Shown: piece by piece, positions 1,637 through 38,190 of the stretch
Layout: the number at the start of each line of letters is the position of its first letter
Position numbering within the stretch: the stretch's first letter is position 1
NCBI RefSeq assembly: GCF_003018235.1
Contig: NZ_CP027437.1
From: Escherichia coli
GTDB lineage: Bacteria; Pseudomonadota; Gammaproteobacteria; Enterobacterales; Enterobacteriaceae
Strand: one strand, 5' to 3'
Length of the DNA: 64,000 nt
Position numbers and translations under genes: made by a program
The notes under the pieces: model-generated
Told to the model about the DNA's origin: nothing
What the model saw: only the letters and a program-made list of their open reading frames with translations
The model's database searches: none

Positions 1637-2065
1637 ATGCCGGATTACCTGAAGCATCATATTGTCTATTACGCTGGCTCGGCGAAAACACCGGAGAACA
1701 TGGCCTGCGGTTCACTGGGTCCAACCACGGGCGGTCGAATGGACGGTTATGTCGATACCTTCCAGGCGGCTGGCGGCAGTCTGGTGATGTTATCGAAAGG
1801 TAACCGCAGCCAGCAGGTCACCGATGCCTGTCACAAACATGGTGGCTTCAATCTGGGTAGTATTGGCGGTGCAGCTGCGTTACTGGCGCAAGAATATGTC
1901 AAAAGTCTGCGTTGCCTGGAATACCCGGAGCTGGGTATGGAAGCGGTGTGGATGATGGAAGTGGAAAATCTGCCCGCATTCATCCTGGTAGATGATAAAG
2001 GCAATAATTTCTTTAGTCAGTTTGAGCAGCAACACCGCTGCGCCAGTTGCCCTGCGGGACATTAA
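1637..2065 (+). CDS. Class I fumarate hydratase family, C-terminal (beta-type) domain fragment; probable continuation of the 414-1610 ORF after a frameshift
   Basis: 142-aa ORF ([12 protein letters not shown]…[12 protein letters not shown]…[12 protein letters not shown]) matching my recollection of the FumA C-terminal domain. The same frame read upstream (…[21 protein letters not shown]) matches the FumA linker. Confidence 0.7.
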
Positions 2066-2074
2066 GGAAAATGA

Positions 2075-2677
2075 ATGGAAGCGCGAATTTCAACTGAACG
2101 GCATGTGCAGCGCCAGCAGAAATTGAAGGAACAGGTCGATACGCGCATCGCGGCGGCGATAGAGAAAAAAGGGATTTTGATTGTTTTCACCGGCAATGGC
2201 AAAGGGAAATCCACTGCCGCGTTTGGTACTGTGACGCGCGCGGTGGGTCATGGCAAAACGGTGGGGGTTGCGCAGTACATCAAGGGGCAATGGGACAACG
2301 GCGAATACAACCTTCTCCAGCCGCTGGGGGTTGAGTTTCATATTATGGGAACCGGTTTTACCTGGGAGACACAGAACCGGCAAGCGGATATCGACGCGGC
2401 GAAAGAGGTCTGGTCGGAAAGCAAACGGATGCTGGCTGACAAGCGTTACGACTTAGTGGTGCTTGATGAGCTGACCTATATGCTGGCTTACCATTATCTG
2501 GATACCGAAGAAGTGATCGCTTCTCTGCAAAACCGCCCGGCACAACAAAGTGTCATTGTCACCGGACGCGGTTGCCACAGTCAGATATTAAAAATGGCGG
2601 ATACGGTCAGCGAAATCCGCCCCGTCAAACATGCTTTTGATAACGGCATTCAGGCCCAGCCGGGTATCGACTGGTAA
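2075..2677 (+). CDS. Cob(I)yrinic acid a,c-diamide / cob(I)alamin adenosyltransferase family protein (CobA/CobO/BtuR-like P-loop ATPase), a paralog rather than btuR itself
   Basis: 200-aa ORF with a P-loop (IVFTGNGKGKSTAAFG) and overall similarity to BtuR as recalled (…VLDELTYM…VIVTGRG…VSEIRPVKHAF). RBS AAGGA lies 6 nt upstream and the start is 10 nt past the fumarase stop, so the genes look co-transcribed. Confidence 0.75.
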   Translation: MEARISTERHVQRQQKLKEQVDTRIAAAIEKKGILIVFTGNGKGKSTAAFGTVTRAVGHGKTVGVAQYIKGQWDNGEYNLLQPLGVEFHIMGTGFTWETQNRQADIDAAKEVWSESKRMLADKRYDLVVLDELTYMLAYHYLDTEEVIASLQNRPAQQSVIVTGRGCHSQILKMADTVSEIRPVKHAFDNGIQAQPGIDW

Positions 2678-2680
2678 TAA

Positions 2681-2713
2681 CTGCGCCTGGCATCCCGCCA
2701 GGCGCAGGTTTTA
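2681..2713. terminator. Probable bidirectional intrinsic terminator between the convergent CobA-like and LysR genes
   Basis: Perfect 11-bp inverted repeat ctgcgcctggc / gccaggcgcag with a 5-nt loop (2681-2707), followed by gtttta. Confidence 0.5.
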
Positions 2714-3616
2714 CATCTCCTGCGGTACAACCGATTTCGCCAGCAACCATTCACGAAATTGCTGCAAGTGCGGTGAGTCAGACTTCTCTTCCTGCCACGT
2801 CATAATAAAACGATTACCGGTACGAATAGGCACATCACAGGGGATCACCATATCGCCACTATCCAAATCATGTTGAATAGCGAAACGTGGTAACAGCGCC
2901 ACGCCGAGATTAGAGCGCACGGCGGCAATCAGCATTGAAAGCAAATCGAAACGTGGTCCGTTGTTGACCAGCGGACTGCTAACGCCAGATAAGGCAAACC
3001 ACTCTTCCCAGCCAGTAATACGGGTACTTTGATGCAGAAGTGGTAACTCTGTAAGCAGTTCTGCCACTGACAGTTTTTGATCGGACATTGCAAGCAAACT
3101 GCCGCTGCATACCGGCAAAATCTCCTCATCAAAGAGATATTCTACTTCCGCCCAGGGCGCGCAAAAATTTTCGCGCATAATGACAGCATCGTACTCCCGA
3201 TTAAGAAAATCGCCGTTATTAGCTAAAGAGTGAATATTAACAATAATATCGGGATGTAACTTTGTGAATTCATGTAAATTTGGGATTAACCAGTGGGTAC
3301 TAAACGTAGGATTCACGGCAAGTTCAATAACCTGAACCGTAGGCTGCCAGGTCATAATGGTATTGGTATCGCGTTCCAGCTTATTTAATGTTTCTTTTAC
3401 TATCCCCAGGTAATACTTCCCTGCATCATTAAGAAAAATACGTTTTTTAGAGTGTGAAAATAACGGAGTATGTAAAAATTCCTCCAGCGCACTCACTTGT
3501 CTGAATACTGCACTTTGGGTCAACGCTAACTCCTCTGCCGCTTTGGTATAACTTTCATGACGTGCGACGACCTCAAAAGTCACCAGCAGCTCCGTTTTAG
3601 GTATTTTTCCTCGCAT
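2711..3616 (-). CDS. LysR-family transcriptional regulator
   Basis: 301-aa ORF with an N-terminal HTH (…YTKAAEELALTQSAVFRQVSALEEFL…) and LysR-type substrate-binding domain architecture. AT-rich upstream region at 3617-3900. Confidence 0.8.
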   Translation of the reverse strand: MRGKIPKTELLVTFEVVARHESYTKAAEELALTQSAVFRQVSALEEFLHTPLFSHSKKRIFLNDAGKYYLGIVKETLNKLERDTNTIMTWQPTVQVIELAVNPTFSTHWLIPNLHEFTKLHPDIIVNIHSLANNGDFLNREYDAVIMRENFCAPWAEVEYLFDEEILPVCSGSLLAMSDQKLSVAELLTELPLLHQSTRITGWEEWFALSGVSSPLVNNGPRFDLLSMLIAAVRSNLGVALLPRFAIQHDLDSGDMVIPCDVPIRTGNRFIMTWQEEKSDSPHLQQFREWLLAKSVVPQEM

Positions 3617-4180
3617 AATGCCGTCCCTTAAAAATAGTTTAAACCATCAAAAATACATTACTTATTACGAAGTAATGGTAACCAAAGCAGCAATAAATAA
3701 TTTATAAGAATCATGATTGACATTTATAACCCAGTAAGCCTGGCGTGACAAATATCTTAATCAGATAATAATAATCCGAAAAGCACAGCGCCTTTCGAAT
3801 TATCCGGAATCACATTAAGTGAAAATTATTAAATTGATATCATTTATCATATCTGTGGATATTATGATAAACAATCAACAAAGATTTTATTTTTGATTTA
3901 TAGCATATCCCTCTAAGAATTTTTGCGATGCTGCAATATCCGGGGTAAAGACCCGATCCTGGCTGACAAATGGCACGACTTGACGATAAGCGGTGAACAT
4001 CGCTTTTGTTGATTTACTTAACGCTACGGTCAAACGCTGGGAAGCCAGTGCATCAGGTAACGATTCGAAATTCGCCGTCGTTCTTATTCGTGGCTTGCGG
4101 TCGGTTGCGGCAATCCACAGTGGCTGTGGTCATGCAGTCAAGCCAGCGGTCAGATTTCGACCGTGGTTAACATTTAAGGC

Positions 4181-28022: not shown

Positions 28023-29441
28023 TCAGGCTCCTTTCCTCGCTTCTTCGTACGCTGCCAGCGTTCGCAGCCTTGCCTCTTTGTGATCAACTATCGGTTGCGG
28101 ATAATCCAGCGTCACACCTGCTTTCTGCGCCCACTTCCACGGCTCATGCACCACTTTCCCTGGCACATCGCGCAGTTCCGGTAGCCACTGGCGGATAAAC
28201 TCGCCTTCGCGGTCAAATTTCTCGCCCTGGGTTGTCGGGTTAAAAATACGAAAATACGGCGCTGCATCGGTTCCGGTTGAAGCGGCCCACTGCCAGCCAC
28301 CGTTATTAGCTGCCAAATCACCATCAATCAGCTGCGACATGAAATATCGCTCACCTTCGCGCCAGTCGATCAATAAATCTTTCACCAAAAAACTGGCTGT
28401 AATCATCCGTAGCCGGTTATGCATCCAGCCAGTGGTGTTAAGCTGACGCATGGCAGCATCAACAATCGGGTATCCCGTTTTGCCTTCCTGCCAGGCCTTT
28501 AAATGCGCGGAATTGCTCTGCCACTGCACGCGGTCGGTCCAGACAATAAACGGACGATGTTTACACAGCGAGGGGTAATACGTTATCAGATGACGGTAAA
28601 ACTCGCGCCAGATCAGCTCATTAAGCCAGATACTACCGGCCCCACCGTCCAGCGCCTGCGGCTGTTCCGCCAACAAGCGATGCAGACACTGGCGAGGCGA
28701 TAACCCGCCCGTTGCCAGGCTGGCGGACAAACGACTGGTGCCTTCCACTGCCGGAAAATCTCGTTGTTGCTCATATTCTCCGGCACCGTTCTGGCAAAAC
28801 TGGCGTAATTGCGCAATCGCAGCTTTTTCTTCCACCGGGAAATGCGCAGTATCGAAAGGCTGACGAGGATAATTCAGCGTAATGGATGGCGCGGGATCTA
28901 TCGATCCACTACTACGTACTTTTGGCGCAGCGACGCACTCCGGCATCCCTTCCCGCAGCCGTTTCAGCCAGGCGTTTTTAAATGGCGTAAAGACTTTGTA
29001 CATCTCATGATTGCCAGTCATCACCGCCCCCGGCGGCAGGATCACGCTGTCGTCAAATCCTTCACACACCACGTTACGCAGCGTTCTCTCAACCTGCGCA
29101 TCCCGCGCCCGCTCATTCACCTCATACTGATAGTTATAAAACAGATGGGTAACACGATTTTCCGCGCACACCTGTTTAACTATTTCGACGCTGGCAGCAA
29201 AGTCATCCACTTCATGAAACAGCAAAGGAATGCCTTTTTCCGCCAGCGCGATTTGTAGCCCATTCAGTTGAGCATTGATAAGTTCAGCCTGACGCGGCGA
29301 CACATTATGCGCCGCCCACTGGCGTGGTGTAGCGATATACAACGCCAGCACGCGTGCAGACGAATAGCGGCAAGCGGCAGCCAGCGCGAGATTATCGTGC
29401 TGACGTAAATCCTGGCGAAACCAGACCAGATGGGTAGTCAT
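28023..29441 (-). CDS. phr: Deoxyribodipyrimidine photolyase
   Basis: 472-aa ORF (MTTHLVWFRQDLRQHDNLALAAA…). Confidence 0.95.
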   Translation of the reverse strand: MTTHLVWFRQDLRQHDNLALAAACRYSSARVLALYIATPRQWAAHNVSPRQAELINAQLNGLQIALAEKGIPLLFHEVDDFAASVEIVKQVCAENRVTHLFYNYQYEVNERARDAQVERTLRNVVCEGFDDSVILPPGAVMTGNHEMYKVFTPFKNAWLKRLREGMPECVAAPKVRSSGSIDPAPSITLNYPRQPFDTAHFPVEEKAAIAQLRQFCQNGAGEYEQQRDFPAVEGTSRLSASLATGGLSPRQCLHRLLAEQPQALDGGAGSIWLNELIWREFYRHLITYYPSLCKHRPFIVWTDRVQWQSNSAHLKAWQEGKTGYPIVDAAMRQLNTTGWMHNRLRMITASFLVKDLLIDWREGERYFMSQLIDGDLAANNGGWQWAASTGTDAAPYFRIFNPTTQGEKFDREGEFIRQWLPELRDVPGKVVHEPWKWAQKAGVTLDYPQPIVDHKEARLRTLAAYEEARKGA

Positions 29442-29947
29442 AAAACTCCTGAATGGCGCAAGTTAATCACATGCGGCCAAAGTTCGAAATAACGCTGCCC
29501 TGAAAGCCAGGCGTTAGGATAAAGCGCCATATAGTGTTTGATACGCATCAGCGGCGCAAGAAGCGGTTGCTCGCCACGGCGATAACTGTCGATAAGCGCC
29601 GCCAGCTGCTGGCGTTCTGTGGAATAAATATGCGGGCGAAAATACCCCTGAACGTGCATCAAAACGTTGGTGTGATCGCGCGGGTTGGCGGGATGAGAAA
29701 GCAAAACAATTACGCGTTGACGGTACTGGCTGTAAAAATCATCCAGATTTTGCCACTGATGAATATCAGCCACAAACGGGCCAAGTTTGCGGTATTCCGG
29801 CTGAGAATGAGCCAGAAAGACGAGTTTATAGCGGCTGTGATAATCGAGAAGCGCCCCGCGCGTTAAGCCATGTTCTTTCAGTCGATATAGCTCATAAATC
29901 GCGAAGATGCGGATTAGGGTGCTTTCATCAAATCGTTGCTGATTCAT
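29438..29947 (-). CDS. ybgA: DUF1722-family protein
   Basis: 169-aa ORF; 4-nt overlap with the phr start. Confidence 0.9.
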   Translation of the reverse strand: MNQQRFDESTLIRIFAIYELYRLKEHGLTRGALLDYHSRYKLVFLAHSQPEYRKLGPFVADIHQWQNLDDFYSQYRQRVIVLLSHPANPRDHTNVLMHVQGYFRPHIYSTERQQLAALIDSYRRGEQPLLAPLMRIKHYMALYPNAWLSGQRYFELWPHVINLRHSGVL

Positions 29948-30856
29948 TACTGCTCCTGAGATATTAACAGGAGTAAGTGTAGACGTTGGGAAATGATGTT
30001 TGTGAAGTTAATCCTGTTGTAGCAGGGCAAAATTACGAAAGCACGCTCCCCGCAAGGACTGACGCCAGATAGTTTCTGTCCATGGCTGCCCTTTCCATTC
30101 AAACGTGAAATCAATAAGTTCATCAGGGACATCGCAAACAATATGAAGTCAGATTTCTTCTCTGCCGTGACTCTTTTCACTCATTGCGTAACTGTCATGC
30201 TCTGGATTATTTAATTCTTTCAGTGGAATTTTTTCCTCAAAGGCTTTATTTAGCCGCCCCTGATTTCCTTTTACAGCGAATAAATAATCACCTCCCTGTT
30301 TTTGTATCTTCTCTGCAATATCTTTCTGGCAACCCATCGCATCAGTTGTGATAATTTTTCCTTTAATATCCAACATGTTAAGAAGTTCAGGGGTAACTCT
30401 AATCTCATTGGATTTCTCATCCGTCTTGATCTGTCCGATGACCAGACTGTGCATTGTTCAGAACGCACTAATGACATGAATCGCTCCCCTGCGGCGACTC
30501 TTGTCATAAGAGTGCCGGAGCGTTTTTCCATCAATTGCAATGACGCCTTTATCATCTGAAGAATGGCAGTCACGCATCCAGTTAATAAAGCACTCGTGAA
30601 ATTTTGCAGGACTGATACAGGATACAACTCTGGCAATGGTATCGTGAACAGGAATACCATTTTCAAAATCACCATATTGTTTTAAAAAATCGAGATGTGT
30701 TTCCCCAAAATCCTCTATATCTTCCCAGCCTTCTGCACCAGAAATAACGGCACAAATAGTCAACAGTAGAATATCCGACAATTTATGTTCCACTTTCCAG
30801 GCTTGTCTGTAATCGGGAATAATAGAAATATGTTCCATCAGTTTTTTAAGTTCCAT
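29947..30856 (-). mobile_element. ISAs1-family (H-repeat-associated) transposase gene, disrupted (in-frame TGA at 30458-30460 and a downstream frameshift)
   Basis: Three consecutive minus-strand ORFs (30458-30856, 30149-30454, 29947-30180) which I recognise as pieces of an H-rpt/ISAs1-type transposase ([32 protein letters not shown]… / …[28 protein letters not shown]…). Confidence 0.75.
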
Positions 30857-31020
30857 TTTGTGCTCCTTAATTATGTAAGGAGTATTTGATCATGTATAAG
30901 CAATAAAAAACAGCTTCAGGTAATGAGGAATATCTCAATTTTTAAACATAAAATGCGAATTATTTAGCACAAAAAAGCAGCGTTACGTGATCTTTCCCTG
31001 GTGATAAACGAGAAATAAAT

Positions 31021-31053
31021 AAAAGGGGCGAGGCTGATTTCGCCCCCTTTTAT
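31021..31053. terminator. Probable intrinsic terminator downstream of the orphan immunity gene
   Basis: Hairpin aggggcga…tcgcccc flanked by A/T runs on both strands. Confidence 0.5.
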
Positions 31054-31056
31054 TAT

Positions 31057-31422
31057 TTAACAATATTTAACTTCATATTTCCCTATAATATCGAACACAT
31101 GGTCATAAGTACTGATAATTATGTGCTGAACTCCATCTCTTTGGATATCCTCTACTAAATCGAAACTTGATTTAGTATATTGTTCAAAAGGATAATCATC
31201 AACTTTGTATATAGATAACTTTTCAATTTTGCTAATAAAAAACTCGAGACTAATATCATAAGCATCTTTAATAGCAGGTTTGCAGGCAGACAACGATAAG
31301 GAAGCTTTGATGGTAAAGTTAAATGGATACAGATTTAACTCTGTCCCAGTTAAAATCAACGCATCTCGACCATATATTTGACCATATTTTGTTTCTAGTG
31401 CTTTTACAATCATATTAGCCAC
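31057..31422 (-). CDS. Putative immunity protein paired with the orphan Rhs C-terminal toxin
   Basis: 121-aa AT-rich ORF whose start (GTG 31422 or ATG 31413) abuts or overlaps the stop of the upstream orphan toxin frame, the usual toxin/immunity arrangement. No recognisable family. Confidence 0.55.
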   Translation of the reverse strand: MANMIVKALETKYGQIYGRDALILTGTELNLYPFNFTIKASLSLSACKPAIKDAYDISLEFFISKIEKLSIYKVDDYPFEQYTKSSFDLVEDIQRDGVQHIIISTYDHVFDIIGKYEVKYC

Positions 31423-31882
31423 AACCTCTTGTCCTCACTGTTCTGCCGCCATTTTGAGTTGAAAATCTTCGATCTAAATTAATTTTTGACAATTCCTCTG
31501 GAGTAGCCCATCTCGAAGGAATCTTCGATACACCGGCTGCTTTGGCAGCATAAAGTCGTCTGTTATCTAAAGTAAAGACTGAATCTTTATGAGCACCTTG
31601 TGATAACAATCTCTCTTGAACATTTACAGGTAAATCCCGCATTCTAACTTTTCTAATAGGTTCAACGTGATTTATATATGACGGGTCATTTATAAGTCTG
31701 TGAATAAGTCCATTAACATTTCTTCCGTCTTCAAAAACACCATTCATACTATCTTGTGAGAATAGAATTGTTTTAGGACTTACTGGTGATAATCCAAGAG
31801 GATCTATCCATGATAACGGGTTTGGAACATAACTATAGAGGTTTAATCCCCCCTCCAGCCCTATCGGGTCAGGATGCGCAAT
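31415..31882 (-). pseudogene. Orphan Rhs C-terminal toxin module (start-less fragment retaining only the DPxGL end of the Rhs core)
   Basis: Minus-strand frame reads …DPIGLEGGLNLYSYVPNPLSWIDPLGL followed by a ~125-aa unique domain (…MNGVFEDGRNVNGLIHRLIND…TLDNRRLYAAKAAGVSKIP…). The frame opens after a stop at 31883-31885 with no in-frame start until M at 31747. Confidence 0.7.
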
Positions 31883-32006
31883 CTACCTATCTGAACGATC
31901 GTACCATCAACTTCGTATATAAATTATCAAGACTGTAACGTCATAGCGCCATGACTTACTGTTATGATTTCATAAACAGGGAAGATATAATTCCTTACCC
32001 GATATA

Positions 32007-32435
32007 TTATTGGTGCTTCGATTTAAAAAACTCCCAATACTTTGGAGTATATCCTTTAAATGCTCTATGTTTCCCTTTTTCATAAGCTTTCAGGAAACAT
32101 TCGTAAGCCTCATCGTTTTCACCTAATTCTAGACAAACACCCCCTAAGTTAATCAGTTCAGATGTGGAATATAGTGGAATTTCACACTTAAAAATTTCAA
32201 CTGCCCAGTATTTTGCCTCATTATATTTTTTAAGGTCAAAATACACACCATAAATGCAACGAATCAACCATGCAGAAACTCCATCACCAAAAGAATATTT
32301 CGGCTCAGGTAAACTATCCCACAAAGAAAGATAAAGTTTTAAAGCACCATAGGCATCTCCTTGATCTTCAAGAACGTTACCATCTTCGATTTGCTTTACT
32401 ATGCTTTCTTCAAGCACTGGTCTGGTACTACTCAT
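32007..32435 (-). CDS. Putative cognate immunity protein for the main Rhs C-terminal toxin
   Basis: 142-aa AT-rich ORF 73 nt downstream of the Rhs stop on the same strand. No recognisable family. Confidence 0.55.
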   Translation of the reverse strand: MSSTRPVLEESIVKQIEDGNVLEDQGDAYGALKLYLSLWDSLPEPKYSFGDGVSAWLIRCIYGVYFDLKKYNEAKYWAVEIFKCEIPLYSTSELINLGGVCLELGENDEAYECFLKAYEKGKHRAFKGYTPKYWEFFKSKHQ

Positions 32436-32508
32436 TGCAAGCTACTCCATATGTATAAAATGAAAATTCACATAGTTCTAACTAGCTAATATATAACAAC
32501 CGATTTCT

Positions 32509-35500
32509 CTATTTTATGATTGGCGGTACAATTGGAGGTGTCACTGGTGGTAAGTATACTTGACCAAGTTTAGCCCCAGCAGAACGGTTAAGAGAATAAT
32601 GATCCAAATAATAATTTTTTGAATCCAGCATCCAATCCCTGACAGGTTTAGACTTCGGCCCCAAAAATCTACCAGTATTATTCCACCATGTAACGGCATC
32701 TGTCTTATGAGACATATCTGCTTCACTTAATGGATGCCAGACACCTTCAGAATCTTTAAACTCCATCCGGGAACCTGTCCCTCTAATTTTTCCATCATTT
32801 CTCATCCGAGCAATAACCTCACGGCCTGTTCGGCTATTCTTCCCTGGGGTTCTTCCTAAGAAATCACAACGTTTTGACAGCCCTAATGGGTCAATCCACC
32901 CCAGCGGATTAGGCGCATAAGCATACAGGTTCAGCCCGCCCGCCAGCCCTATCGGGTCCGTTACCATGAACCGCCCGACATCCGGATCATAGTACCTGTG
33001 CAGATTGTAATGCAGCCCCGTTTCCCTGTCGAGGTACTGTCCCTGGTAGCGCAGGTTCTGCTCCACCCCGCCGTGGTCCTTCTCCTGTATCGTGTTACCC
33101 CAGACCTGATACCCCGTCTCCCACACGATTTTCCCGTCGCTGTCCGTCATCTCTTCCGGCGCGCCGTTCACATCCGTGTGAAAATACAGTATCCGGTTCG
33201 GGCCCTCTTTACCCACCTTATCCACCCGCGCCAGCGGTTCATAACTCCCCGGGTCGCTGTAGATATACAGGCTGCTTATTCCCTCCGGCCTGCTCTCCTG
33301 CGCCAGCCGCATTCCGTCCCATAAAAATGTCGTCCGGTTGTACGGTTTACCGTCAGGGCTGATGTGCTGTTTTTCCGTCCGCCTCCCCAGCGCATCGTAC
33401 ACATACCGGTACGTTCCCCGCGCTGTCGTCACTTCCACCATCCGGTGTTCCGCATCATAACGGTAACTCTGCGTGCCGCTCCGGCCCTCCTTTTCCACCG
33501 CACGGCCAAATTCGTCGTAACGGTAGTGCACACCACGGTAAGACATCAGCCGGTTGAACGGCACCACGCTGTTTTCTGCCGTGGCCCTTTCCCCCGCGCG
33601 CCGCGCCAGCAGGTTTCCCGCCGCGTCGTACTCCCAGCTCGCCAGATACCCCTCATCCTCCGAGCGGCACGCCGTGATGCGCCCCGTGGGGTCGTAGAAG
33701 TAATCCGTTTCCCCCCGCCGGCTGTGCCGCGTCTTCAGCAGTTCATCCTCGCCGCTGTAGCTGTACTGCCGGTCCGTGAACGTCTCCGGTACCACCCCGC
33801 GCATCCCGCTGTATGTCTCCCTGCGCTTCAGCCGCCCGGCGGGGTCATAAAGCTGCCGCGTGCTCAGTCGCCCCTGACTTCTGAGCACTTCCCGGTGCAG
33901 GGCGTCACGTGTGAACTCGCTGATGACCTCCCGGTCCAGATTTATCTGCTGGAGATGGCCGCTGCCGTAGTACAGATGACGCTGCGTTCTGCCGTCCGGA
34001 AAGGAGGTGGCTGTCCGGTTGCTGAGTTCATCGTACTGATGGGTCAGGACGCCCTGCGCCGTCTCCTCAGTCAGCATCCGCCCCAGTCTGTCGTAACTGA
34101 AGCGGATAATCTCCGGTGCGTCCATTTCCCCGGCATCCGACCGTCGGCGGCGGATTTCCAGTAGCTGGTCTGCCGCATCATGGACGTATTCCGTACGGCT
34201 ATCGGCTGTCTCCTTTGCCGTGAGCCGGCCCGCCGCATCACGTGCCAGCCGGTGGCGGATTTCACCGCCCCGGTCCCCTGTGAACACCACTTCCGTGACC
34301 GCGTTCAGCACGTTGTAACGGTACGTCTGGCGGCAGCCGTCCGGATTTATCTGCTCCGCCAGACGGTCCAGCACATCATGGCGGAACCGGTAGTTTTCTC
34401 CGTTCTCGTTCGTGAGCGTGACCAGACGCCCGTAAGCATCGTACCCGAACGCCGTCCTGCGCCCCGTCGCGTCTGTCCGGCTGCGCACCCGGCCCTGCCC
34501 GTCCCGCTGCCAGCGCGTTATCCTCCCCATCGGGCTGGTGTACTTCACGAGCCTGCCCGCCGCGTCCGACTGGTAATTCACCGTGCGGCCGTCCGCCAGT
34601 ATCACCTCCGTCAGGTGGCCGCTGTCGTCATACCCGTAGCGCGTGCTGTGGCTCTGCGCGTCTGTCATCCGTATCAGCCGCGTGCGTTCGTCGTAGAACC
34701 AGGCCGTCTGCGAGCCGGAACAGTCCGTGTGCCGCATGAGCTGTCCGTCTTCGTTCCACTGAAGGTATTTATTCCCCCCGCGCGCATCCGTTATCTGCAC
34801 CACCTGACCGTGGCGGTCATACTGATACCGGGTGTTCTGCTGCAGCGGGTCGGTCACCGCAAGAAGATTGCCGCGTTCATCGTACTCACAGCACCAGCTG
34901 TTCCCCGCCGCGTCCACCTCCGTTTCCGGCTGGTGCCACACCGGGTGCCACTGTGTCTGTGCCACCCGCCCCAGCGGGTCGTGCGTCTCCGTGATATGCC
35001 CCTGCCGGTCATACACATAGCGCCATTTGCCGCCCTGCGCATCGGTCATTCCCAGTAACAGCCGTTCTTCGTCGCTCCAGCGGAACGTCGTCACCTGCCC
35101 GGCTTCGTCCTGGTACGCCGTCACCTGGTTCTGCGCGTCCCACTGATGATAACGCGTGCGCCCCAGCCCGTCCGTCACGCACAGCCTGCGTGCCGCGAGG
35201 CTCCACGCCAGCCGGTACTGTTCACCGCTGTCCGTGTGGTGCCCCGTCACCCGCCACGCTGCGTCATCCGGGCCTTCATACCAGCCCCACTGGTAATAAT
35301 ACCCTTCGCCGCCCGGCTGGCGGTGCAGGGTCATGCAGTGGTTTTCGTCGTAAGCAAACTCGCGCAGCAGGTGCCCCGTGCTGTCGTACACGCCGTTCAG
35401 GTCGCCGGCCTCGTCATAGCGGTAACGACGCAGCAGTAAAGGAGCCGTCTCAGGGAAATGCTGATAAATCTGTGTCACCCGCCGGGGATGCGCCGCCAGT

Positions 35501-37188
35501 TCATAATGCAGACGGATGCACGGACGCTGCTGTTCACCGCTGATTTGCGTGATGCGCCCCAGCTCGTCGTAGTACAGATTCAGACAGTTGCTGTTGCGGT
35601 CGCCCAGCATTTTCAGCCGCTGGTGCTGCGGGTGATGCGGGTCGGCTTCAAACAGAAAAAACTGCCCGTCATCGCTGCTGATAAGCCAGTGCCCCTGCTC
35701 ACCCCGCCGTACTGCCAGTCCTTCGCCGGGGCTGTAAAACCCGCTCCCCGGCAGCACAGCCTCCATATCCAGGCGTCGTCCCATGCCCGACACAAAGGTC
35801 ATACAGTTTTCGTCAGCAGTACCCGGCGTGCGCACGAGGCTGACTTCATACATCACGCTCCAGCCCTGCCCGAACATCCCTTCCGTGCGGTCGTCACGAC
35901 TGCTGTACACGCGCTGCCAGTCCAGCGGAAAGTGGCCCGGCAGACTGAAGTCAAAATCATCGTCATCGGCCAGATATTTGGCTCCGGTGGCGGCATTGAC
36001 CGGATGCGGAAGGGCACTGATGGCCTTCTGCGTCATCACCCCCATCCCGACACTGGCAGCAAAACAGGCGATTTTAGAAAGCATTTTGCCCGGGCGAAGA
36101 AACATCAGCGCCACGGTTGCCACCAGGGTTATCTGCGACCTGCCGCTTCTGATATCCCTGACCACCAGTAACGGACCGCCAATGCGGACATCCGGTGACA
36201 CAAACGCCCCGTTCCCCGGCTCATTCACCACCCTGGCCTCGCAGGTGCAGCGTGCCCCGCTGCGTGCCGCCGGCTGGCTGTTGATACGCACATCCCGCGC
36301 GCCTTCCGCGATATATTCCGCTGCGGGCGGTTCATCATCGCCTTTGAACAGATTACTGATGCTGCCAATAACCGCATTCACTCCCTGAAAGGCGGTTTCC
36401 AGCATACCGCCCGGACTCAGCAGGTTAAGGGCCGTTCCCAGGGGGTCATCCAGAAAGGCGGCTTTTTTTTGTGCGAGAAACTGCGTCAGTGAGGAGGGAT
36501 GTTTATGGCAGTCGATTTTATCGTCAGGGGTCGGGGTGGAGCCCGGGGCCGCACTGGCCACGGTGGGCTGCCATAGTTCCGACACAAAATGTGTCACGCC
36601 ATCCACCATTTCAGAACGCCCTTCTTCCGTACTGAGCTGGTCATGCAGCGCCCGGGACATCAGCACAGGCCCTGTCACCGGGTTAACCGCCAGGGCTATG
36701 GCCCCCGCCATTTCCAGATATTCCCCGGCCACATCCAGGAACGTTCTGGCGTCCTCCTGACGCTGCGCTTCTTCCTGTTCCGCCTTCGCCTGCGCCTCCT
36801 GCGCCTCAATGTCCTGCCGCGATGCCGCAGTCGCCGCGGCCCGCGCGGCAGGTTTGCTGTTGATCCATGTGTCGCCAGAGCCGGTGAGGATGTAACCTTC
36901 AATCTGAGGCGGGAAAAGCATATTTGCGAGGTCTGAACAGACTTCGCTGACCTTTTCTGTCACGCCGGTGTACACCATCGCCACACCCGCCACAAAACCG
37001 GTCAGCACGACGGCCGTGCACCCCATAGTGATCCCCGCTGACGTCGCCAGTAACGAGGTTGTGCCGACAATGAGGGCATCAATAACGACATTTGCGGCCA
37101 CCTCCAGCACCGCCCCCAGCACATCTGCCATAAACGACGTATGCAGCAGGGCATCACCCTGCCTTGCCGCCCAGAATGCCTCTTCCAT
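32509..37188 (-). CDS. Rhs-family polymorphic toxin with N-terminal prePAAR motif, transmembrane segments, PAAR-like motifs, YD-repeat core and variable C-terminal toxin domain (putative T6SS-delivered effector)
   Basis: 1559-aa ORF. N-terminus [16 protein letters not shown] matches AARxxDxxxH; hydrophobic stretches follow; PAAR-like motifs (…WINSKPAAR…, …[11 protein letters not shown]…); many YD repeats; core ends [27 protein letters not shown], then a ~120-aa tip. Core is very GC-rich, tip AT-rich. Confidence 0.85.
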   Translation of the reverse strand: [1559 protein letters not shown]

Positions 37189-37206
37189 GTCCCGTTCCCT
37201 GTGTGA

Positions 37207-37436
37207 TTAATTCGTCCCGGCTTCCTGCCGCATCCTGAAGCGCAGATTCTTTTTAATTTCAGCCCAGCGCGTCATATCTGCCGGGGTCAGCGGTGTGGTT
37301 CTGGCGTAGGTGAAGGCCATCATGACCCGCTCACCCGGCAATACAAATGCCACCTGACACTGGTACACCTGCTCGTTACCCCGGAGAAACTGGCTCTGTA
37401 TTTGCAAACCGCCTCATTGAGATAATATTCCGTCAT
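37207..37436 (-). pseudogene. Possible remnant of an Eag/DUF1795-like chaperone gene immediately upstream of rhs
   Basis: ATG at 37436 with an AGGA RBS gives MTEYYLNEAV… then terminates; the +1 frame continues as …QIQSQFLRGNEQVYQCQVAFVLPGERVMMAFTYARTTPLTPADMTRWAEIKKNLRFRMRQ, ending 19 nt before the rhs start. Family assignment is from memory and weak. Confidence 0.35.
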
Positions 37437-38190
37437 AATAGAAGTCGTCCTTTTTAATAAATGAATTATTTATTGACAGGTTCTGTTTTTTAATCATGAA
37501 TGTAATGTCTATCACCGCTTTACAGCACTCTTTATCTTTCAAGCGGTAATCACTAATAACATTAAGCAATTACCCATATTTACAATGACCGGAACTGATA
37601 TGCCGTTATGTATTTAACAATCCCAACATATTCACCATACCAATAAAATCACGAGTAACAAACACGCTACCGCCTCCATATAAAAAATGGACAGCTTATA
37701 AAATTGCATCTTGCATAGAAAGGGCTGAGATATCGAGTGTATTTTAATTATCAACTATAAATCTTGAATATTTTCATTAACAGAAACACATCTTATCCCA
37801 TTAGATATGTTAACAATCAATTATTCTTAACATATCACTAAAGTATATATTACTCTCTTTACTATCTGTTTTTATTGCGGTAGCGATATTAATAGCAAAA
37901 TTCGGAATTTATTTAGATGCTGGAATAAGAAAAAATGATGACGGCTTTCTTACCTTACCCTGAAGTTTCAGGAAAGTGTGTAAGGAAGGATGCAACCTAA
38001 CTGGAGATTTCTGAGGATCTAGTTGCTTAGAGCGACAATGAAGGTGAACGCATCCAGAGTAGTCCTATGAAAGGATACTATTGAAAATTGATGCTAAAAC
38101 AGTGATTAAATGAACAACACCATGGAACCCGTTGATTCAAAACGCCTAAACCAGCCCCCTGATACGAGGCTGGCTTAAACGCGCAGGCAA

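Follow-up and report, generated by a model that had tools for sequence, protein, structure and literature searches.

The window analysed here, a stretch of 64,000 nucleotides from Escherichia coli (NCBI RefSeq assembly GCF_003018235.1, contig NZ_CP027437.1), very likely carries a non-functional fossil of ISEc1, the Rhs-associated H-repeat (H-rpt) of the ISAs1 family, at the ybgA-proximal end of the ybfA-ybgA Rhs island, where it is the ortholog of K-12 ybfD. Lying on the minus strand, the element is 978 bp long, keeps both of its terminal inverted repeats, and has been disabled by an internal deletion and two nonsense codons. The element is already known, and related genomes carry a RefSeq pseudogene annotation of the same locus. 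As a textbook Rhs-associated H-repeat remnant it has little biological weight, and its value is corrective: the locus should be annotated as a defective ISEc1 of 978 bp (31000-30023) that has lost 313 bp internally and carries two nonsense codons, and the ORF that apparently runs into ybgA should stay uncalled. Today, this copy would have no role beyond marking the edge of the island and supplying homology for recombination.

The original description of H-rpt is reportedly that of Zhao et al. in J Bacteriol in 1993; Hill and co-workers are said to have first described H-rpt in 1993 and to have reported tandem defective copies at RhsC. We take the window copy, with K-12 ybfD, to be the copy that older literature on RhsC names H-rptC3. 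According to a genome study, H-rpt copies bear insertion-sequence annotations even though transposition has not been observed for them; the same study lists the RhsC island as b0699-b0706 (PMC3032704). In the rhs study of Jackson et al. 2009, H-repeats are unmentioned.

Identity and limits of the element

When the pieces of the transposase were joined into one conceptual frame, this frame matched NCBIfam NF033564 (ISAs1 transposase) with E=3.8e-84 and 282 bits (cut-off 70) over profile positions 1-229 of 314. In Pfam, it matched PF13808 (DDE_Tnp_1_assoc) and PF01609 (DDE_Tnp_1), the latter covered from position 3 to 116 of 200. The separate ORF pieces 1 and 2 also gave Pfam matches, to DDE_Tnp_1_assoc (E=1.1e-34) and DDE_Tnp_1 (E=1e-10). 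Given the E-values of the transposase pieces for NF033564 and the Pfam families, the assignment to the ISAs1 family is well beyond chance. The description of this gene as a decayed ISAs1/H-repeat transposase in the first-pass annotation, which was made from the sequence, was thereby borne out. With the same profiles, K-12 YhhI covered NF033564 from 1 to 314 and PF01609 from 3 to 200.

As for membership of the ISAs1 family, the element showed the transposase-model match and imperfect inverted repeats at both ends, and it lacked a full-length single ORF with a complete DDE domain. Because it is 978 bp long with 313 bp missing, has stops at codons 133 and 236, and covers only positions 3-116 of the 200 in the DDE profile, we regard it as a defective derivative rather than an active ISAs1 member.

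For the anatomy of the element, we aligned the window copy with K-12 ybfD and with the two intact H-rpt copies of K-12, yhhI (H-rptB, beside rhsB) and ydcC (H-rptE, beside rhsE). An intact ISEc1 is 1,291 bp long, runs from CAGGGAAAGATCA to TTGCCCTG, and contains one 378-codon ORF. In a blastn comparison of the intact 1,291-bp H-rptB with the whole window, its positions 1-913 corresponded to 31000-30088 (95.9%) and its positions 1225-1291 to 30089-30023 (97%). This was the only H-rpt copy that the intact element detected within the 64-kb window. Together, the alignment and the blastn matches set the limits given in Table 1. The coordinates assigned previously, 29947-30856, were correct as to the transposase start at 30856, but they omitted the 144-nt leader and left repeat (30857-31000) and included 76 nt that do not belong to the element (29947-30022).

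Terminal inverted repeats, which had been suggested as a thing to look for, were found at both the 31000 and the 30023 ends. An automated repeat search returned no terminal repeats, these being short and imperfect, so the ends were compared directly instead. They pair imperfectly, with matches at 10 of 13 and 14 of 18 positions, and the intact K-12 copies show the same pattern in direct comparison. The native stop codon (TAA, 30035-30033) lies inside the right repeat and is now out of frame. No direct repeat that could represent a target-site duplication was found in the 15 nt on either side of the element; none is visible at the two intact K-12 copies either, so this result is non-discriminating. 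A promoter scan gave consensus-level matches only, which did not outnumber those in shuffled sequence; the 75-bp spacer before ybgA contained none. An Rfam scan of 29000-32600 gave no match.

Table 1. Features of the defective ISEc1 copy and its immediate surroundings (window coordinates).
Feature	Coordinates	Strand	Evidence
Whole defective ISEc1/H-rpt element, 978 bp	30023..31000	-	blastn against intact H-rptB; end motifs
Left terminal inverted repeat CAGGGAAAGATCA	30988..31000	-	Same sequence as at the left ends of yhhI and ydcC
Right terminal inverted repeat TAATTTTGCCCTG	30023..30035	-	Aligns with intact right ends ...CGTAATCTTGCCCTG
5' leader with promoter-like site (30898-30870) upstream of the transposase ATG	30857..30987	-	Alignment with intact copies
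Transposase codons 1-132, N-terminal DDE_Tnp_1_assoc	30461..30856	-	ORF list; PF13808 E=1.1e-34
Nonsense codon 133, TGA (intact: TCA Ser)	30458..30460	-	Alignment; translation
Transposase codons 134-235, first part of DDE domain	30152..30457	-	PF01609 profile positions 47-116 of 200; frame-0 translation
Nonsense codon 236, TGA (intact: CGT Arg)	30149..30151	-	Alignment; translation
Junction of the 313-bp deletion (intact nt 914-1226, codons 257-361)	30087..30088	-	blastn; alignment; profile coverage loss
Island DNA, 37 bp, from element right end to island/core boundary	29986..30022	-	Comparisons with Ecol_276 and ST70
77-codon chance ORF, frame +1	29947..30180	-	Frame comparison; no family match
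ybgA (DUF1722), first core gene past the island	29438..29947	-	PF08349 E=1.5e-34; RefSeq orthologous loci
Terminator-like hairpin, 11-bp stem followed by a T run, just upstream of element left end	31021..31050	-	Sequence scan

Lesions in the transposase frame

The main lesion is the 313-bp internal deletion, whose junction (30088/30087) shows a 2-nt GC microhomology. It takes out nt 914-1226 of the intact element, which are codons 257-361 and include HWHVENKLHWRLD, and it costs the C-terminal 84 of the 200 Pfam DDE profile positions. The native C-terminal codons that follow are left in frame +2. In IS4-like DDE transposases, the C-terminal part of the domain carries the catalytic glutamate. 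Profile coverage, together with general knowledge of IS4-like DDE motifs, suggests that this third catalytic acidic residue was lost with the deleted segment. Since the deletion would have removed it, an active transposase could not be produced from this copy.

Upstream of the junction, the frame is broken by stops. ORF 1 has 132 codons, starts at 30856 and ends with the TGA at 30460-30458, and ORF 2 has 101 codons in the same frame (30454-30149). An in-frame TGA at 30458-30460 had been reported before, and both the translation and the intact copies, which have TCA (Ser133), agree with it; in fact, every copy compared other than the window has TCA at codon 133. A frameshift had also been placed near 30150-30180, and this did not hold up: the alignment with intact copies is gapless there, and the real interruption is an in-frame TGA (30151-30149) at codon 236, where intact copies have CGT (Arg). 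From the start codon to the deletion junction, the alignment contains no insertion or deletion at all, and the transposase frame spans 255 codons. Taken as the full set of lesions, one stop and one frameshift also missed the 313-bp deletion, which is the sole lesion common to every sampled ybfD-site copy.

The first-pass annotation had left room for the possibility that the interrupted positions are the natural domain boundaries of separate genes. In alignment with the window copy, intact ISAs1 copies read through both positions as one 378-codon ORF. Because these copies read straight through both, we treat positions 133 and 236 as lesions, not as gene boundaries.

Distribution and order of the lesions

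The stretch matched nearly every complete E. coli genome, and beneath the matches lay ybfD (as 'ISAs1 family transposase') and ybgA. Annotations of K-12 and of thousands of complete E. coli genomes show the ybfD-ybgA-phr-dtpD neighbourhood, and PGAP describes ybfD there as an ISAs1 pseudogene whose C-terminus is missing and which, in some strains, also has an internal stop. A query for the ybfD-type junction with the core DNA upstream of ybgA was covered by at least 80% in approximately 3,891 of the 5,426 genomes, leaving about 1,500 without this junction. A separate 151-bp query for the deletion junction gave no clean genome-wide count, as the flanks of intact copies merge into one 'place', and nine loci were inspected base by base instead.

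These nine ybfD-site copies came from the window, AF40, AST215, NRZ14408, 2012C-4502, CT30, strain 53, 4621 and K-12. The 313-bp gap occupied the same alignment columns in all nine. The other lesions were distributed differently. NRZ14408 has a TAA at codon 16; the TGA at codon 133 occurs in the window only; the TGA at codon 236 is present in the window, AF40 and AST215; and a TAG at codon 254 is present in K-12, CT30 and strain 53, with an additional +1 insertion near codon 200 in CT30. No lesion precedes the deletion junction in 2012C-4502 or 4621. Since the deletion is common to all nine copies and the stops are rare and differ by lineage, the deletion predates the secondary lesions, the stops having arisen recently and within particular lineages. 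The deletion would have arisen once, in an ancestor of the sampled lineages, after which the copies would have drifted, different lineages gathering different stops and frameshifts. The shared deletion and the lineage-specific secondary lesions thus document, on a small scale, the sequence in which changes took place at the RhsC locus.

We also counted the two stop alleles with 41-mers centred on each site. By megablast, the TGA133 allele was found in none of the 5,426 complete E. coli genomes and the TGA236 allele in two of them, AF40 and AST215; these counts need an exact 28-mer, and alleles with a second nearby difference would be missed. TGA236 therefore ties the window sequence to a lineage that is rare among complete genomes. 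As a single-base singleton with no exact counterpart in those genomes, TGA133 could conceivably be a sequencing or assembly error. However, other private substitutions lie nearby (codons 153-155 and 210), as expected of a diverged lineage, and we consider an error very unlikely. Even if TGA133 were one, the verdict on the element would be unchanged, because the deletion and TGA236 are also found in independent assemblies.

Low dN/dS among dead copies

Over codons 1-255 (window 30856-30092), the pairwise dN/dS among the dead ybfD copies ranged from 0.05 to 0.24. Sites varying in at least two sequences comprised 25 synonymous and 12 nonsynonymous ones. Changes private to one ybfD-site copy, when pooled, amounted to 17 synonymous and 21 nonsynonymous. 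With a neutral nonsynonymous fraction of 0.73-0.80, the pooled private changes contained fewer nonsynonymous ones than the neutral expectation (P 0.0005-0.013), and the changes private to the window (2 synonymous and 5 nonsynonymous) fit neutrality (P about 0.5). Nonsense sites accounted for 4 of the 83 variable coding sites, with 2.8-3.5 expected if there were no selection against stops. In the four-gamete test, all four gametes were present in 607 of 1,540 pairs of informative sites. The ybfD of strain 53 was closer to the intact H-rptB of K-12 than to the other ybfD copies.

Simple neutral decay in place was rejected as the full story, as it is contradicted by the low dN/dS and the nonsynonymous shortfall, and gene conversion was added. 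We attribute the low dN/dS to gene conversion because of the four-gamete failures and the proximity of the strain 53 ybfD to H-rptB. Conversion from intact, selected H-rpt copies would import pre-filtered variation and so keep the dead copies similar, while the copy itself would be decaying neutrally. The mosaic pattern is a small but clear case of gene conversion making dead IS copies resemble selected ones.

A separate observation was made at window positions 30393-30399. Here, codons 153-155 contain three adjacent window-private second-position changes, by which TAI became RVT. These may stem from a single mutation that altered several bases at once, or from conversion by an unsampled copy over a short tract.

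Alternative explanations

Low dN/dS could also be a sign of function. The truncated transposase, with its N-terminal DNA-binding part and partial DDE domain (approximately 235-281 residues elsewhere), might have been domesticated and be under purifying selection, the window carrying a recent null allele. If this were true, truncated YbfD could, for example, inhibit or regulate ISEc1 transposition, as truncated transposases do in other IS families, or dampen Rhs-locus rearrangement in trans. The dN/dS values were obtained from copies that all bear the deletion, and the pooled private changes are short of nonsynonymous ones, as such selection would have it. Moreover, about 3,900 of the 5,426 genomes have retained the copy at this site, a frame of at least 235 codons is open in six of the nine sampled copies, and YbfD is listed as a protein in the K-12 RefSeq annotation. 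Nevertheless, stops have accumulated as fast as neutrality predicts, with about 3 expected and 4 observed, and the nine copies have undergone five independent inactivating events, of which three fall early in the frame (the stops at codons 16 and 133, and the +1 insertion near codon 200). The mosaicism and the four-gamete failures indicate that gene conversion lies behind the low dN/dS. The K-12 copy itself has accumulated 9 nonsynonymous changes of its own, with 7 falling in the stretch from codon 82 to codon 113; the element is wholly absent from many genomes; and the frame of the window copy ends at codon 133. Domestication is therefore highly improbable, and neutral decay overlaid by gene conversion is the reading that we prefer.

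A second possibility is that the 978-bp copy is a non-autonomous element that could still be mobilised in trans, by transposase from an intact ISEc1 at another site in the genome. Both of its ends are present and match those of intact copies, the median number of H-rpt places per complete E. coli genome is 5, and K-12 has two intact copies. By contrast, among the matches listed, every single-piece junction match was ybfD next to ybgA, the flanks are conserved across strains, no target-site duplication surrounds the copy (15 nt each side), and H-rpt transposition has not been observed (PMC3032704). We give mobility in trans only a very slim chance and keep to a non-functional fossil.

Finally, the head-to-tail arrangement of three ORFs (132, 101 and 77 codons) might recall natural small-gene boundaries or programmed recoding by stop read-through or frameshifting, the latter being used for the transposase in the IS1 and IS3 families, but the probability of this is practically negligible, as intact copies have an uninterrupted 378-codon ORF with Ser133 and Arg236, both TGAs are rare derived alleles (0 and 2 of the 5,426 genomes), the third ORF is in neither transposase frame and matches no family, and in every reading frame the match to the DDE profile goes no further than position 116 of 200.

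The junction with ybgA and the edge of the island

The 77-codon ORF (30180-29947) lies in frame +1, which is neither the transposase frame (0) nor that of the native C-terminal codons (+2). It had no match in Pfam or NCBIfam, and it runs on for another 75 bp after the element has ended at 30023. By its frame, the absent family match and its extent partly beyond the element, it was ruled out as the C-terminus of the transposase. Its TAA (29949-29947) and the ybgA ATG (29947-29945) have one base in common. The final stop of the transposase had been described as overlapping the ybgA start; the one-base overlap is real, but the stop is not the transposase's own, as it ends a chance ORF and lies outside the element. 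Nor does the element abut ybgA, as had been claimed, since the 75-bp spacer separates the two.

Ecol_276 has neither the Rhs island nor an H-rpt; in this genome, ybfA and ybgA are immediate neighbours, and ...CAGGAGCAGTAATGAATC is nevertheless present. Because TAATG occurs in this island-free genome, it is core DNA around the ybgA ribosome-binding site and unrelated to the transposase. Ecol_276 aligns with the window from 29985 onward only, and we therefore place the island/core boundary at 29986/29985, with the right end of the element 37 bp before it and the ybgA ATG 38 bp downstream. With the element ending at 30023 and the boundary fixed by comparison with an island-free genome, the view that the element marks the edge of the rhs island proved right. 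In ST70, which has the Rhs island without an H-rpt, the alignment with the window began at 30004. The right end, the 75-bp spacer and the ybgA ATG are colinear with K-12 and seven other genomes.

The island end itself varies in structure. In island-free genomes such as Ecol_276, the ybfA terminator is joined directly to ...CGTCTACACTTACTCC upstream of ybgA (extracted locus 3939-4045), and this junction defines, to the base, where the whole Rhs island ends on the right. Near the same position, Ec-042-T5-ESBL carries a full-length H-rpt of 1,291 bp that contains an internal stop and has a different junction (extracted locus 1778-3426). Instead of the ybfD-type junction, this H-rpt is followed by 359 bp of AT-rich DNA, and the same DNA ends the H-rpt-free island of ST70 (extracted locus 3642-4014). 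The right end of the Rhs island thus has at least three structural forms.

The Rhs neighbourhood

Leftward of the element lie, in order, the hairpin (31050-31021), a 121-codon ORF, an orphan Rhs C-terminal tip, a 142-codon ORF and a 1,559-residue PAAR-DUF6531-RHS protein. The orphan tip falls within 31057-31882 on the minus strand, with an open frame at approximately 31882-31415 and a 27-residue core-end motif. The 121-codon ORF (31422-31057) overlaps the frame of the tip by 8 nt and is followed by the hairpin. No Pfam family matched either the tip ORF or the 121-codon ORF; they are probably a displaced toxin/immunity pair.

The main Rhs gene (32007-37188, minus strand) encodes the 1,559-residue protein with PAAR, DUF6531, RHS-repeat and RHS core domains, which is longer than K-12 RhsC (4,194-bp CDS, about 1,397 residues). 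The 142-codon ORF that follows this gene gave weak, sub-threshold TPR matches and is a candidate immunity protein. A gap of approximately 1 kb (37189-38187), without an ORF of at least 120 codons, separates the rhs start codon from ybfA (about 38394-38188, minus strand); in K-12, the gap between ybfA and rhs is 243 bp.

Comparison with known copies

The intact K-12 copies yhhI and ydcC and the window copy are alike in their terminal inverted repeats, leader and start codon, and are 96% identical over positions 1-913 and 97% over 1225-1291. They differ in that yhhI and ydcC have an open 378-codon frame with full coverage of NF033564 and PF01609, whereas the window copy is without nt 914-1226 and has two stops.

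K-12 ybfD (b0706), annotated as 'H repeat-associated putative transposase', lies in the gene order rhsC - ybfB - ybfO - ybfC - ybfQ - ybfL - ybfD - ybgA - phr - dtpD. It has the same position as the window copy, the same spacer to ybgA-phr-dtpD, the same 313-bp deletion and the same right end, with 94% nucleotide identity. As regards orthology, the window copy shares with ybfD the core junction upstream of ybgA and the deletion, and it lacks the 253-codon ORF ending at TAG254. K-12 has this TAG where the window has TGG, and is itself without TGA133 and TGA236. The absent TAG254 is a lineage-specific difference and does not affect the orthology. At the other end, K-12 ybfD has lost the left inverted repeat and the first 25-30 nt or so, and joins directly onto the right end of ybfL, the H-rpt copy before it. 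Unlike it, the window copy has a complete left end and is preceded by a terminator and the orphan rhs-CT module.

The closest complete genomes were AF40 (NZ_OZ547043.1) and AST215 (NZ_AP043621.1), which are 98% identical to the window over the element and have the same deletion, the same TGA236 and a complete left end. In the dtpD-phr-ybgA block, the window shares 95-99% identity with most E. coli genomes, and with AF40 the figure is 99.3%. PGAP annotates ybfD in AF40 and AST215 with 'internal stop; missing C-terminus'. Both lack TGA133 and the private changes of the window at codons 153-155 and 210, and both differ from the window in the DNA to the left of the element, which is a partial Rhs gene in AF40 and an IS256-family transposase gene in AST215.
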